64,000 bases of DNA from Octopus vulgaris (Eukaryota), in the NCBI GenBank assembly GCA_951406725.2, contig OX597822.1, positions 55,180,001 to 55,244,000 on the forward strand. The letters are read 5' to 3'. The translations under genes and the position numbers were made by a program. Position 1 is the first letter of the stretch; each line of letters opens with the position of its first letter. Positions 5,075-62,349 of this stretch are shown piece after piece. The notes under the pieces were generated by a model that saw only the letters and a list, made by a program, of their open reading frames with translations, had not been told where the DNA came from and did not search any database.

Positions 5075-5117
5075 AACATTTGATAAGACGAAATTCATCA
5101 TCGAAACCGGTAATATT
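5075..5117 (+). ncRNA. Minimal type-I hammerhead ribozyme motif (U3-A8 core variant)
   Basis: aacat-TTGATAA-gacg aaattcat catc-GAAA-ccgg-TA-atatt; palindromic stem III ACCGGT; one mismatch each in stems I and II. Confidence 0.55.
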
Positions 5118-5194
5118 TTATATTTTCTATATATATATAAATTTTAAAAAATCATTTTATTAATTTCTTTCTAAATTAAAATGTGTTAAATTAT

Positions 5195-6315
5195 TTCTGT
5201 GCTGTTTCCACATCTATTTTCGGGAGCAACTGTTTTGTCGAAGGCGTATCTTGTTGTGAATTGCTTGAAATACGGAGTAGAAAAATGGCCGACAACGGAT
5301 GAAGGGTCGTTCTTTATGTTGCTTATCTTGTTTTCCATTTGTTTCTTTCGTTGTTCGAAAAAAAGTTCATATTCCATGTATTCGTATTTCGTATTTCATG
5401 TTGTTTATGTTTTGTGATGTCCTGTGCCCACATATGCGTATGTATATAGATATATATGTATGTACATATCTGTATATATATCATTTATATTATTATATGA
5501 TTGAACGCTACGCATCCATTTCCAAGTAAGCTTTATCTTAATTTTGATGCGACACTCATTCTGCTCTAATACTCTTTCGTTTCCTCTCTCTTCCTTTCTC
5601 TAATTCTTTTTATCTCCCCTTCTCCTCCTTTCGTTTTTTCTCTCTCATCCTTTCTCTAATTCTTTTCCTCTCCCCTTCGCCATTCTCTGTCTGTCCCTCT
5701 CTCTCCCTCACTCATCCTCCTTTGCTCTCTCGCTGCTCGCACATGACCATCGGCCACCTTTCTTTTCTTCCCTAACTTGAGTTTCTTTCCTTGTGATTCA
5801 GTTGCAGGGATCAGACGCATTCTTGTCTGTCTCCTGTTCAAGCTTGTTCCACCACGTTCGTCACCTCACCTCGTTTAGGCTTAGCAACCCTTCCTGTTTG
5901 TTTTCACTGTCCCGTTTTTGTTAGCAATTTTGACCCACTGCAAAATCTCAAATTTTATTTAATTTTCTCTGCGAGAGCAACTGTTTTGTCGAAGGCGTAT
6001 CTTGTCGTGAATTGCTCCACGAAATACGGAATAAAGCAGCCGACAATTCATGTTGCTTGTCTTGTTACTTGTCTTGTTTTCCATTTGATTCGTTCGTTGT
6101 TCGAACAAAAGTTCATATTCCATGTTTTCGTATTTCGCTTTTCATCCTGTTTTCGTATTTCTTGTTGTTTACGTTCTGTGACGTCCTGTGCCTACATATG
6201 CATATGTATATACATATCTATGTAAGTATGTACATATATGTATGTATATATACACATATATATATTATTTACATCATTATATGATAGAACGCCACGCATC
6301 CATTTCCAAATAAGT
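5195..6315 (+). repeat. Two diverged direct copies (~5195-5535 and ~5965-6315) of a repeat separated by a CT-rich stretch
   Basis: Shared gagcaactgttttgtcgaaggcgtatcttgt ... gaacgc.acgcatccatttccaa. Confidence 0.7.
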
Positions 6316-7048
6316 TATATATATATATATATATTTTAAGGACAATTTACTGTCATTTTTTACGACGGTTAAGCCTACTTCTGTTAACCTACATGTTAAA
6401 CTACTACTACTACTACTACTACTACTGCTACTACTACTACTACTACTACTACTACTACTACTACTACTACTACTACTACTACTACTATCTCCCACCAACA
6501 CTACCACTCTCAACGTTATTTATGGAGATCGGCAGCGATATCAGGAGGAAGTTTCAGTACGACCATTCTGTCTACTAGAAATAGATGTGAAATCTTCCTC
6601 CATTTACACAGTCGTCTATAAAAAATTTTTCTCGATGTTTGATACTTTAATTATACCACAGAACACTATATTGCATTACAATTCCATTACAGGCATAAAT
6701 ACTTGAGAATGGGTTGGTGACGAAAAATGTTTGGATTTTCACGGCTGGATCAGAACTGAAATATGGGGATAAACAACAGCAACAACACCAACAACAGTAA
6801 AAACAATAACAACAGCAACAACAACACAGCAGCAACAGTGGCAACAACAACAACAACAACAACAGCACCAGTACTAGTAACATTACTAATGGCAACATTA
6901 TCACCAGCAGTATCATTGTCACAGATAAAGCGACGACGACGCAAAGATTACTATCATCACGGTTATCACGGTCATTAGAAACAAACTATAAGAAACTAAC
7001 TACTAATACAACAACCATCTTTCCAATTCTTTGCAAACATTTATTTAC

Positions 7049-7215
7049 CTCTGATGTTCAATTACAGCCTGCGCCACTTCGAAACTTTTCATTTCTAGAA
7101 TATGGTCGTAAAATGTCATCTTCTTTCTATCTTTGAGTATCTTCGCCTTACACGAGAGTAGTAAACACACTGCTGTAGTGTGGCCGTTTTTCGCTGATAA
7201 ATGCAGAGCCGTTTC
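7049..7215 (-). CDS. TRPA1: TRPA1-like exon (ETALHLSAKNGHTTAVCLLLSCKAKILKDRKKMTFYDHILEMKSFEVAQAVIEHQR)
   Basis: 167 nt, atcaag| ... |gtaaat, phase 0 to 2; last ankyrin repeats. Confidence 0.93.
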
Positions 7216-8306
7216 CTTGATGGGGGATAGGTAAGAATATATAATGTTGCAAAAAACATTCATTAACAACAACAACAACAACTATAATAATAATGATAAT
7301 AATAATAATAATAATAACAACAATAACAACACCAATAAAAAAAAAAAATAATAATAATAATAATCCTTTCTTCTGGAAACTCAGGGCGTCAAATTTGGAG
7401 GATTACATCGACCCCTACCGACCCCGAAAGGATGAAAGGCAAAGTCGACACCGGCGGAATTTGCACTCAGAACGTAGCGGCAGACGAAATACTGTAGATG
7501 ATGATGATGCAATCCTAGTGATATAGAAAGATCTCTTGGGTCATTTGAAGAAACTCCTTATACAAGATCTCCCCGAACAATAATTTTGCTCTCCAGCTTA
7601 TAGGTCTATACTTATGAATGGTGCCATCCACTCTTACCATTTTCTCAACTATTACGTACATTTCAATAAATTCATTCGAGGACAGAACCTCTATTTCCAC
7701 TTTCACCTGCCATCTCGAATGAAACTTGAGGACGACAAGAACTCTATCAAAGAGGAAAGTCCCTGTCCTCATATCAATCAACCACGTCCACTATAAAACT
7801 TCGCTATAGCTATCAAACAGAGGAAAACTACCTTCTCTTTCTGTCTTTAGCCAGACAAGTGGACGAGGGCAAGCATCACCATAGACTTGCCGAACAGCCG
7901 GGTCCACCTCGCACGCAACAGTTGCTGTTTTACATGAATCTACAAGTCAGACACAGTCGGACATTGAAGGAGTGCATGCAGAACGATTTCGTTCTGCATG
8001 CGCATCTTGGACAGGACCGTCTGATATTTCCGAGTTTGTCAGGAACCGATGGCACCCCTCAGTAGCACTCCTAAGCAAAAGACTTTTGGAAATCACCCAA
8101 ATTACCTTTGCTTTTCCATTGGAAAACATCGGTGTGGAGAAGCAGGACTAGTATGCATGGGTGACTGCTGGTCTTCCATAAAAAAACCTTGCCCGGACTT
8201 GTGCCTCAGAGGCGAAATTTTAGGTGCAACCCCATGGTAATTCATAACAGAAGGGTGTTTTTACCCGTTACCCTTACGCCTAGTTTATAAATTGTATCTG
8301 ACTTAC

Positions 8307-8421
8307 CCCATCTACATTTGTAGCGTTCATCAAATAACAGTGGACATTTAATAACAATGTAATACTTTTCGTATAACCGTTGGCGGCAGCATGGTGAAGA
8401 GGAGAATTATTTCTATTGTCT
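8307..8421 (-). CDS. TRPA1: TRPA1-like exon (DNRNNSPLHHAAANGYTKSITLLLNVHCYLMNATNVDG)
   Basis: 115 nt, tttcag| ... |gtaagt, phase 2 to 0. Confidence 0.93.
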
Positions 8422-60287: not shown

Positions 60288-60395
60288 TGCAGACGATCGT
60301 TTCGTACAGAGATATAAAAATAATGCAAATTCATGATTGAATTGGATTAAATAAAATTAATTAAATTAATTAATTATCAATATGCTCTTCAGTGA
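60288..60395 (-). ncRNA. Hammerhead motif with long AT-rich stem II loop
   Basis: ca-CTGAAGA-gcata...tgtac-GAAA-cgatcg-TC-tg; palindromic ACGATCGT and GUC triplet; the inverted copy near 61234 has CTGAAGA-gtaca, which restores stem II. Confidence 0.6.
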
Positions 60396-61294
60396 AGGAA
60401 ATATTAACAAAACTTTTACAATGAACTTGAGAAAGAAAACAGCAGAAGAATAGGATCTAGGACATTCTTATTTATCCTTTTGAGAAAGAGATGTGAGTCC
60501 AGTTAGGTATTAACTATAGCTAAAGGCTATAACGGTTATTTTAAAATATAAGTAAAGAGATATCAGAGACGTGCCCTCTATAGATGAGTAAGGAAATTAG
60601 AAATTTTAACTCCAAATAAGTCGGGTAGGGCAAAATTGTATAGAAATGCCCAATGTAAAAGTATGACTATATTTGAATTAAGACATGATCTAACAGTTGA
60701 AAACATTACGTAGTGTGGTATATATTTATAAAAAATTTATACACGAAAATGAAGTTAATCTAGAGGAGATAGTATATAAAAGCCTTATACTAGATAGTTA
60801 ACATATACAAGTATTTGAGAGGTAAAAAGCGTTAAAGAGAGAATAAGATGCGTAAGATGGACTTATGTTTGCATAAGATCTAATGTTCGTAGTATGTATT
60901 AAATATAAAGCAGAAAAATAAGTAAAAACAGAAAAAATAGTTGCTAATATTGCTATTTAGATAGTAAATGCTTGCTGTGTCTATAAAGACGAAAAAGGGA
61001 AGCTGAAATGTAAGAATACGAGGAAATAAATCAATGTTGGGGAGTTAAATGAGCTGGTATGAAAATAGTAAATAAAAAAGTTTATTTTATTTGTATTGAT
61101 ATGTAAGATTATACAGTAACTGTAAGGATAAAAATCTCTTCCTCACAAGGAGAAATATGAATCTCCTAGATTCTATTCTTCTGCTATTTCCTTTCTTAAG
61201 TTCATTGTAAACATTTTCTTTATACTTTCTACACTGAAGAGTACACTCTACATTCAACCTTTTTACACCTCTATATATATTATCCTCTCACACC

Positions 61295-61346
61295 GTCTCC
61301 GATGAAGACATATAATTAATAAATATCCTGGAAACAGCTATGAGAC
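61295..61346 (+). ncRNA. Degenerate hammerhead motif
   Basis: gtct-CCGATGA-ag...ctg-GAAA-cagcta-TG-agac; a related half-motif on the minus strand at 62512-62535 reads GAAA-cagctg-TA-agacc. Confidence 0.4.
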
Positions 61347-61920
61347 CTTCTATCTATAAATGCTCTAATATCTACACAGACTTGGCTTTTTATCTTATTA
61401 CGCACAAAATTCTATATATATATAAGAAATATTAAATTTCTAAATCTCTCGTAGAGACATGTACGGTGGTGGGGCGATAGAATGGTTGTATACTGTCAAT
61501 CTAACAAGAACGTGACAGTAGGGGGTACACCACCACGTATAGCCCTAGAGCTATCGAACGCCTCCTGATGGCTTTGACACATTTTTCCCTGTCTCCTTAT
61601 ATACATTTACGAAGGGGAGCCGGCAGCCGGGGGTGTTTGTCTCCCTTCGTAAATGTATATAAGGACACAGGGAAAAATGTGTCAAAGCCATCAGGAGGCG
61701 TTCGATGCTTCCTAGGCTATACAGCGGTGGTGTACCCCCTACTGTCACGTTCTTGTTATATTGACAGTATACAACCATTCTATATATATATATATATATA
61801 TATATATATATATATATATATATTGATAAAACGGTAAGATAACAAAAGAAAGAAAGAGACCTCAATATTATGTAAATAGAGGAAATTTATCTATACAATA
61901 TGTTACATTACTGGTAGTCA

Positions 61921-61982
61921 AGATAAAACTCTGAGTTTTCAGATGCCGAAGTGGAAATCCACACATATCTCTTCGGTTATCT
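61921..61982 (-). ncRNA. Hammerhead motif, left arm of palindrome 61889-62382
   Basis: agataa-CCGAAGA-gatatgtgtgg attt ccac...catct-GAAAA-ctcagag-TT-ttatct; same family as 30307. Confidence 0.5.
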
Positions 61983-62286
61983 GGCTATTTGAAAACGTTA
62001 TGAAAAATACCGTTAAAAATGAAGGGAAATTAGTCCTGTTATAACTCTGCTTTGCCTGCGTATTATACATCGACTCGCATTTTTCGTCATAAAAATTATA
62101 TAAAAATACATAAAAATATATAAAAATATATAAAAATATATATTTTTATATATTTTTATGTATTTTTATATAATTTTTATGACGAAAAATGCGAGCGATG
62201 TATAAGTACGCAGGCAAAGCAGAGTTATAACAGAGTAATTTCCCTTCATTTTTAACGGTATTTTTTCATAACGTTTTCAAATAGCC

Positions 62287-62349
62287 AGATAACCGAAGAG
62301 ATGGTGTTGTGGATTTCCACTTCGGCATCTGAAACTCAGAGTTTTATCT
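62287..62349 (+). ncRNA. Hammerhead motif, right arm of palindrome 61889-62382 (CCGAAGA variant)
   Basis: agataa-CCGAAGA-gatgg...catct-GAAA-ctcagag-TT-ttatct. Confidence 0.6.

Follow-up and report, generated by a model that had tools for sequence, protein, structure and literature searches.

The small hammerhead-type motifs scattered through a 64,000-nt stretch of the Octopus vulgaris genome (contig OX597822.1, positions 55,180,001 to 55,244,000; hereafter the window) are real and occur far above chance. We hold with high confidence that they represent hammerhead folds of type I, located at the 3′ ends of insertions that are mostly 5′-truncated and most likely belong to Penelope-like elements (PLEs) of several families; their placement into (TA)n tracts is predicted to be the work of the element's GIY-YIG endonuclease (EN) and reverse transcriptase (RT). 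The motifs are a known feature and their density is that of the genome-wide background rather than of a local swarm. The core finding is an ordinary one, as PLE ends with minimal hammerheads have already been published.

The window was scanned with a relaxed type-I hammerhead descriptor, which allows U3-A8, U4C, one extra nucleotide beside stem II and one core error, and which was tuned after the window motifs had been seen. This gave 10 matches at a score of at least 7, compared to 0.73 ± 0.85 (maximum 3) in 30 block-wise dinucleotide shuffles, so the similar density in shuffled sequence that the original prediction had named as evidence against itself was not found. At a score of at least 9, there were 6 matches in the window and 0.23 in the shuffles. 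An out-of-sample test at 40 other positions of the genome (400 kb in total) yielded 26 matches at a score of at least 9, versus 2.25 (4 shuffles). Based on this sample 4.2 matches are expected in the window and 6 were observed (P = 0.24), which does not bear out the dense local swarm that had been proposed. Of 21 matches to a descriptor blind to stem III, 14 have a stem III that is palindromic or one mismatch short of it, against 0.2 of 5.2 in shuffled sequence. The combination of core boxes, stems I and II and palindromic stem III is more frequent than in the shuffle controls, and the predicted type-I order with palindromic stem III is thereby upheld. Exact patterns for four families retrieved 36,795 genomic matches, and the reversed control patterns none. 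In family F, 96% of cells are paired, with both sides changed in only 1 of 8 pairs and stem II being set by the search pattern. Among the 10 relaxed matches, 2305- probably arose by chance.

A strict descriptor found only 1–2 matches in the window and missed most motifs. An Rfam scan of the window at the gathering score, hammerhead models included, returned no match, and among the matches listed from an Rfam E-value scan (150 of 227) there was no hammerhead family. The E-value scan was dominated by microsatellite-like miRNA models.

Of the 14 near-complete motifs originally predicted, nine pass a score of 7, four (30395+, 51657+, 59981+, and 61921-) are mutated yet recognisable family copies, and that at 28622- is a 3′ half only. 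Because four pairs (30307/30395, 56429/56592, 59689/59981, and 61921/62287) are the arms of single inverted repeats, the 14 motifs correspond to 10 insertions; as the paired motifs lie on opposite strands, an active dimer between both arms is impossible. Several unrelated families are indeed present, their number, grouped by eye, being nearer 11 than the suggested eight. At 29650/29785, listed as a degenerate or half motif, the palindrome is present and a recognisable first core box is not.

The best intact motif, and the only strict match, is a family G hammerhead (10721..10781, plus strand, score 14.7) with a canonical core, a 6-bp stem I, a 4-bp GC stem II and a 12-nt near-palindromic stem III, whose homolog L098 shows compensatory changes in stems I and III. 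The family A1 motif (5076..5116, plus strand, score 7.1) combines a U3-A8 core and stem III ACCGGT with weak stems; (TA)6 lies 15 nt downstream, and no homolog was found among the genomic loci compared. A family F2 end (50735..50950, minus strand) contains an intact minimal hammerhead at 50836-50870 (score 9.2) with U4C, an extra A and stem III ACGT. In the 3′ end of a family F1 element (10140..10251, minus strand) a (TATG)n tract has replaced the first core box, and in a family A3 end (13570..13722, minus strand) position A13 is C, as in the other A3 copies examined (L095 and two arms in L183). The 3′ half at 28623..28640 (minus strand) consists of GAAA and the ACAGCTGT palindrome; its first core box was not found, nor was a homolog among the genomic loci compared. 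Family C is represented by an end at 61290..61412 (plus strand; core 61299+, with a mutated ACAGCTGT as stem III; homolog L080) and by a 3′ half at 62452..62532 (minus strand).

The remaining insertions contain inverted arms. Two of these are head-to-head insertions of family B (Hydra-type): that at 30278..30557 is a 206-bp, 89% palindrome between (TA)n tracts, with cores at 30362- and 30399+ and a tail of ~70 nt on the right arm only, and that at 61824..62380 is a 488-bp, 95% palindrome between (TA)21 and (TA)24, with cores at 61976- (extra A) and 62293+ and the left arm alone bearing a ~70-nt tail. A decayed head-to-head pair of family B2 (50988..51745; inverted 45-bp, 84% match; homolog L177) retains a half motif at 51029- and a mutated motif at 51662+. 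The head-to-head insertion of family A2 (Neptune-type) at 56346..56683 has one core with a mutated A9 (56465-) and one intact U3-A8 core (56598+); of its two arms only the left has a tail, of ~35 nt. In the family E head-to-head insertion (59428..60101; cores 59768- and 59986+, the latter with G8 mutated) stem II is long and a ~230-nt tail is confined to the left arm. Family D (60200..61241; homolog L111) has its motif at 60392- with stem III ACGATCGT and an inverted 108-bp, 85% match; the opposite arm is truncated and ends near 61241. Several further palindromes in the window are without a detected motif.

The genome contains an autonomous PLE with a 495-aa ORF1 and an 811-aa ORF2, the latter matching RVT_1 (E = 2.8e-7) and, weakly, GIY-YIG (E = 0.067), with 480 relatives carrying RT and GIY-YIG at E ≤ 1e-50. 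In this intact young family, motifs of the same build occur in the pLTRs, in tandem and head-to-head copies, and the 811-aa protein combines a CX2-5CxxC linker with CCHH in the EN, the target being (TA)n. A link to coding sequence was examined for families A2, B, F1 and E (30 loci each). Three of these four have copies 0.65–1.0 kb behind a GIY-YIG or RT-EN coding region of the same strand, which supports the proposed PLE origin. For A2, RT/EN lies upstream on the same strand in 10 of 30 loci, 50–55% identical to the 811-aa protein over the linker/EN region. In family B, 2 of 30 loci have an EN with a CxCX5C linker and the RT thumb before it; CxxC and CxH surround the catalytic E/N (the H being N or Y in two decayed copies), the target is (TA)n, and Atlas look-alikes of this EN are GIY-YIG at 0.93–0.96. 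As to the RWK and DKT motifs expected in the RT of the Hydra clade, locus L023 is cut off within the RT thumb. A GIY-YIG EN is continuous with the F1 motif in 2 of 30 loci. Family E has no ORF within 1.5 kb in any of 30 loci, though ~800 nt of upstream sequence is shared; locus L209, extended on the correct side, has none either, while the downstream extensions of L207 and L208 do not bear on linkage. By their motifs rather than by a tree, A2 was labelled Neptune-type, B Hydra-type and F1 a third lineage; as Nematis shares the CX2-5CxxC linker with A2 and the young family, Neptune is the probable clade of both and Nematis an alternative.

Three candidate links were rejected. A Neptune ORF at L023 belongs to a downstream insertion on the opposite strand, the real link of this family B locus being the upstream Hydra-type EN. 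An RT fragment upstream of the family F motif at L130 was not counted, because unrelated sequence lies between the two. In the window, the 5′ part of a decayed Neptune-type PLE (13781..14854, plus strand; ORF1 end and RT N-terminus, 57–83% by tblastn to the ORFs of L076, an intact copy) was dismissed as parent of the motif at 13637- on account of its opposite polarity and an intervening TA tract. It is a separate insertion unlinked to any window hammerhead, with 4661 candidates genome-wide.

Most modules had been described as abutting (TA)n. The motifs do not abut it: TA is always on their 3′ side, with the motifs 15–266 nt upstream of it. The expected enrichment was found: all 19 located motifs are followed on the 3′ side by (TA)4+ within 300 nt (background 0.27), and 15 of the 19 within 150 nt (background 0.16). 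Among 30 genomic loci per family, TA within 300 nt 3′ was seen in 21 for B, 22 for F, 30 for A2 and 17 for E, with a background of 0.20. Motif-to-TA distances at these loci are bimodal, and each family uses one of two fixed end points 3′ of the motif, adjoining (TA)n, while the 5′ ends are variable, scattered 5 to 1300 nt. Tandem or inverted 5′-truncated copies with a tail at one end, the structure of a pLTR, are present. When ends were assigned with marker regexes, 26 of 30 head-to-head pairs consisted of one long and one short end and 4 were symmetric; arm length and centre differ between copies (89–1375 nt), and no inverted arm was seen in 30 loci of family F. In the young family both alternative ends fall on an element-encoded TATATAT, which, together with the long/short pairs, suggests two base-paired priming events on one RNA.

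Short, mostly non-coding modules derived from PLEs had been predicted; the derivation stands, and the modules are 5′-truncated 3′ ends of ordinary PLEs, not a distinct class. Full-length PLEs carry such a motif in each pLTR. The enzyme would nick the self-complementary TA target on either strand, and cDNA synthesis would start from each 3′-OH close to the RNA 3′ end. Early stops would leave short non-coding remnants, and joining of two cDNAs at their far ends would create head-to-head repeats. The two strands may prime at different UA-rich sites of one RNA, which would account for one long and one short arm; we regard this as a serious possibility, with the chances slightly against it. By analogy with other PLEs, where this is established, the short palindromic stem III would pair two same-sense copies, so that cleavage would probably be slow and depend on dimerisation or on the protein of the element. 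Copies scattered over the genome are presumably carried along as passengers and serve no function themselves.

Core changes shared by the whole family are found in several families, and cleavage by the window copies may be regarded as a candidate activity. In F1, the commonest family, core position 6 is U in 14,823 exact copies and A, C, or G in 537, at variance with the invariant A6 of the hammerhead core. Minimum-energy cofolding favoured dimers by 5–12 kcal/mol for 5/5 motifs, mostly not as the active hammerhead dimer, and therefore nothing is drawn from it. Contigs from four presumed-RNA runs cover the element across the predicted cut site; they are silent on expression level, ends and cleavage. 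Tentatively, and with less conviction than for the two priming sites, we propose that double base-paired priming makes both the tail and the inverted arms, and jointly that F1 has been selected for RNA dimerisation, protein binding or protein-rescued catalysis, not for classical self-cleavage. Two UA-repeat stretches would pair with both nicked (TA)n strands in a telomerase-like templating that could lengthen the microsatellite, and F1 would retain both its palindrome and the fold of a hammerhead, with a U6 core in which position 7 is free.

Families E, C, D and G might in part consist of fixed-length units akin to retrozymes or SINEs, which are not autonomous and are moved in trans by PLE proteins, possibly via circular RNA. 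Animal retrozymes have been reported as non-autonomous PLE derivatives (bioRxiv 10.64898/2026.07.22.740005), and most copies here, including all family E loci compared, are without coding sequence. However, the window has no head-to-tail monomer arrays of motifs, the 5′ ends are scattered, and three of the four tested families have coding members, so we consider such units unlikely. The palindromes could also be read as TA-targeting MITEs or foldback DNA transposons in which the hammerhead order is incidental or captured, given arms that are 83–95% identical, TA on both flanks and the window palindromes without a detected motif. This seems highly improbable to us, as arm length and centre vary between copies, the arms are asymmetric by a tail, and the same ends are also met with as single copies and downstream of PLE ORFs; A2, B and the young family already contradict it.

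Nor do we see much room for hammerheads acting as host elements that cut the intronic RNA of an ankyrin-repeat gene. The region spanned by minus-strand ankyrin exons (7048-34907) does contain four motifs in sense orientation, yet three of these are truncated or core-mutated, and the fourth (30362-) would pair with its own antisense arm alongside; motifs are found in either orientation, at the density of the genome background, and this role is very unlikely. Chance matches in AT-rich, microsatellite-rich DNA would explain why next to nothing is detected by the strict descriptor and by Rfam, and 2305- is probably one. Against the shuffle controls and the exact genomic matches, chance is hardly credible as a general account; only 28622-, 29650/29785 and possibly 5080+ escape this refutation.

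The material owes its value to a PLE that is both young and intact, with many copies of 811 aa, to head-to-head insertions in their thousands and to core variants that occur naturally at very high copy number. Two unsettled questions thus become amenable to direct test: by what route inverted and tailed PLE insertions arise at microsatellites, which Craig et al. (2021, PMC8557442) list as unsolved, and whether cleavage is required of PLE hammerheads in the first place (Frangieh et al., 2024, PMC11167929). Palindromic insertions in introns would also be expected to give long double-stranded RNA. Our literature search found no prior description of long/short paired ends or of U6 in the commonest family. 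It returned no paper on PLE double priming and no octopus or A6U hammerhead; mollusc families or A6 variants may be listed by Lunse et al. (2017) or in the supplements to Cervera and de la Pena (2014) and Craig et al. (2021). The available text of a 2026 Octopus vulgaris repeat paper (PMC13282606) contains neither "hammerhead" nor "ribozyme", and that of Craig et al. (2021) names octopus only for Naiad remnants.

The motifs resemble the minimal hammerheads that the pLTRs of metazoan PLEs carry (Cervera and de la Pena, 2014, PMC4209133) in type-I order, palindromic stem III, extra nucleotides between A9 and stem II (here family F), the U3-A8 variant, the prevalence of single truncated copies and the many consensus families per genome; opposite-strand pairs 100–700 bp apart and massive copy numbers were also described there. 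Copies here number at least 36,795 exact (~1.7e5 extrapolated) versus 4,000–9,000 in coelacanth and Xenopus, counted with a different descriptor. Stem III palindromes here reach 8–12 nt and stem II inserts 60–80 nt, and family-wide A6U (F1), A13C (A3, 4 copies) and an extra nucleotide before G12 (B) are absent from the available text of that study. That PLEs have inverted arms, tails on one side and (TA)n as target is known (Craig et al., 2021), as is the inverted 5′-truncated copy with a tail at one end. The C-terminal GIY-YIG, optional ORF1 and (TA)n targets match the Neptune and Hydra clades of that work, the young family by its CX2-5CxxC linker with CCHH and family B by the Hydra signature, a CxCX5C linker without CCHH; besides the usual tails of 30–40 nt (A2; ~42 in the young family) there are tails of ~70 nt (B) and ~230–250 nt (E). 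Non-LTR retrozymes (bioRxiv 10.64898/2026.07.22.740005) are likewise non-coding, PLE-related and equipped with type-I hammerheads, but by definition consist of tandemly repeated units that each contain a motif, of which the window has none. In the Poseidon element PAc of Anolis (Frangieh et al., 2024), two alternative 3′ ends also define the tail and both target strands are cut and extended, while the hammerhead is protein-assisted and dispensable for insertion in vitro. PAc starts at RNA sites non-homologous to the cut DNA, whereas the young-family ends coincide with an element-encoded TATATAT able to pair with the TA target.

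The original prediction listed about 14 near-complete type-I hammerhead motifs, mostly with a palindromic stem III, as a dense swarm near (TA)n tracts. A strict type-I descriptor identified 1–2 motifs in the window, and an Rfam scan of the window at the gathering score revealed no hammerhead. A relaxed descriptor (score ≥7) gave 10 matches, compared to 0.73 (maximum 3) in 30 shuffles; nine are predicted motifs, and the tenth (2305, minus strand) is probably a chance match. As this descriptor was tuned with the motifs already known, it was tested out of sample on 40 fixed genome stretches of 10 kb each, where 26 matches at score ≥9 were found versus 2.25 after shuffling. 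When stem III was ignored by the descriptor, it was nevertheless palindromic in 14 of 21 matches (shuffled: 0.2 of 5.2), and the palindrome is therefore a real property of these motifs.

Overall, the prediction was partly confirmed. Motifs with palindromic stem III occur above chance, but nine of the 14 pass score ≥7; four are mutated family copies, and the one at 28622 (minus strand) is a 3′ half. The proposed degenerate or half motif at 29650/29785 is a palindrome without the first core box. Self-comparison of the window showed that four of the motif pairs each make up the two arms of one head-to-head repeat lying between TA tracts, so the 14 motifs represent 10 insertions; two further head-to-head pairs are decayed. 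Nor is the density peculiar to the window, which holds 6 matches at score ≥9 against an expectation of 4.2 from the 40-stretch sample (P = 0.24). Extrapolated to the whole 2.80-Gb genome, the number of motifs would be about 1.7e5. Exact-pattern copies number 1,448 for family B, 33,118 for F, 2,193 for A2 and 36 for E, with 0 for each reversed-pattern control. Further hammerhead families, with a stem II of 46–80 nt and a palindromic stem III of 8–9 nt, were seen at L068 (5275, minus strand; 5719, plus strand), L105, L109 and L111, also as head-to-head pairs.

The interpretation of the motifs as derived from Penelope-like elements (PLEs) is supported. Through a reverse transcriptase (RT) fragment at 13781–14854 we found a young family (L061–L076) encoding ORF1 (495 aa, no Pfam match) and ORF2 (811 aa, RT-linker-GIY-YIG), with numerous intact 811-aa copies. 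ORF1 overlaps ORF2 in a different frame, which suggests a frameshift. The linker and CCHH of ORF2 are motifs stated for Neptune (Craig 2021, PMC8557442); this clade label, like Hydra below, is based on motifs, not on a tree. In 16/16 loci a terminal repeat (pLTR) contains one or more motifs built in the same way, with a U3-A8 core and ACCGGT as stem III, in tandem and inverted arrangements. Among 30 genomic loci examined per family, RT/EN lies upstream on the same strand in 10 for A2, an endonuclease with a CxCX5C linker (Hydra clade), preceded by the RT thumb, in 2 for B, and a GIY-YIG domain joined to the motif by uninterrupted sequence in 2 for F1; no coding link was found in the 30 loci of E. 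The motifs resemble EN+ PLE pLTR ends in how they would work, and in the young family as well as A2, B and F1 the features tested agree with that class.

The 3′ ends are fixed, whereas the positions of the 5′ ends vary between 5 and 1300 nt. The predicted (TA)n enrichment was recovered and favours one side: a (TA)n tract follows within 300 nt 3′ of 19/19 window motifs (background 0.27) and, among the genomic loci examined, of 21 (B), 22 (F), 30 (A2) and 17 (E) of 30 loci each (background 0.20), with 19, 10, 7 and 5, respectively, on the 5′ side. An inverted arm within 1.5 kb is present in 14/30 (B), 10/30 (A2), 14/30 (E) and 0/30 (F) loci. Each family has two end points, and the resulting tail measures approximately 35–40 nt in A2, 42 nt in the young family, 70 nt in B and 230–250 nt in E. 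With ends typed by marker regular expressions (n = 30), head-to-head pairs combine one long and one short end in 26 cases (P = 3e-5 versus 0.5), the others being one long/long and three short/short.

In a PLE studied elsewhere, the element's protein cleaves each of the two target strands and extends it, starting at two internal RNA sites that define the tail; the hammerhead is assisted by protein, and in vitro it can be dispensed with (Frangieh 2024, PMC11167929). In the insertions described here, cDNA would be primed by each nicked TA strand; early stops of synthesis would account for the short remnants, and palindromic insertions would arise where the far ends of two cDNAs are joined. Read-through copies of the young family have an element-encoded TATATAT at each of the two end points. 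The short end of A2 resembles this, and B and E offer just 3–5 nt. Together with the long/short asymmetry, this might reflect priming by base pairing at two separate sites of a single RNA, a reading we hold tentatively, at slightly less than even confidence. Alternatively, the internal TA stretches may be relics of captured target DNA and the asymmetry may stem from endonuclease resolution, a source suggested previously (Craig 2021, PMC8557442).

Cleavage by minimal motifs is weak and requires dimers (Cervera 2014, PMC4209133). Head-to-head arms are mutually antisense and therefore form no active dimer with each other; arms of one insertion would pair instead. In F1, the commonest family (its window copy lacks the first core box), core position 6 is U in 14,823 exact copies versus 537 with another base, which is A in 20/100 among the matches listed. 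An alignment of 30 F motifs shows C3 and G5 to be invariant although outside the search pattern, whereas position 6 is split between U (19 motifs) and A (11) and all four bases occur at position 7; copies found by flank alone have U6 in 11/16 parses, two parses being artefactual. Changes of A6 lead to low activity (Perreault 2011, PMC3088659). Without an invariant A6, F1 would be less likely to be an active ribozyme, its having the fold being unaffected. A3 has A13C in all four copies seen, and B one extra base before G12. Within-family covariation is thin, both sides changing in 1/8 pairs (a stem I pair).

The window (36% GC, rich in microsatellites) contains ankyrin-repeat exons from approximately 34907 to 7048 on the minus strand, of a multi-ankyrin-repeat, putatively TRPA-like gene; the left-hand motifs are intronic to it. 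A 2.9-kb tandem duplication with near-identical copies (16081–18537 and 18953–21408), containing one ankyrin exon, is either a recent event or an assembly artefact. Palindromes near TA tracts with no hammerhead detected (11676–11820, 28169–28314, 29648–29808, 34419–34693, 61480–61780) may be other PLE families, e.g., hammerhead-less Naiads, or MITEs. A 281-bp unit in 3.1 tandem copies (1031–1893, 99% identical) adjoins (TA)26 and gave no match to the hammerhead descriptor. Other retroelement fragments (17506–17967, 20376–20837, 32697–33074, 55511–56011) are presumably R2/R4-type endonuclease ends; an RTE-like LINE fragment with RVT_1 (35330–37716) and a hAT transposase remnant (23107–23421) are also present.

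In the literature searched, Lunse 2017 and the supplements of Cervera 2014 and Craig 2021 (which could contain such cases) excepted, we found no paper on octopus hammerheads and no A6U hammerhead family, and the passages on A6U in PMC11662667 concern twisters; the search also returned no paper on double priming in PLEs. The young two-ORF Neptune-type PLE is a good substrate for biochemistry. No retrozyme array is present in this window, and its elements add members to the already known PLE/hammerhead type.
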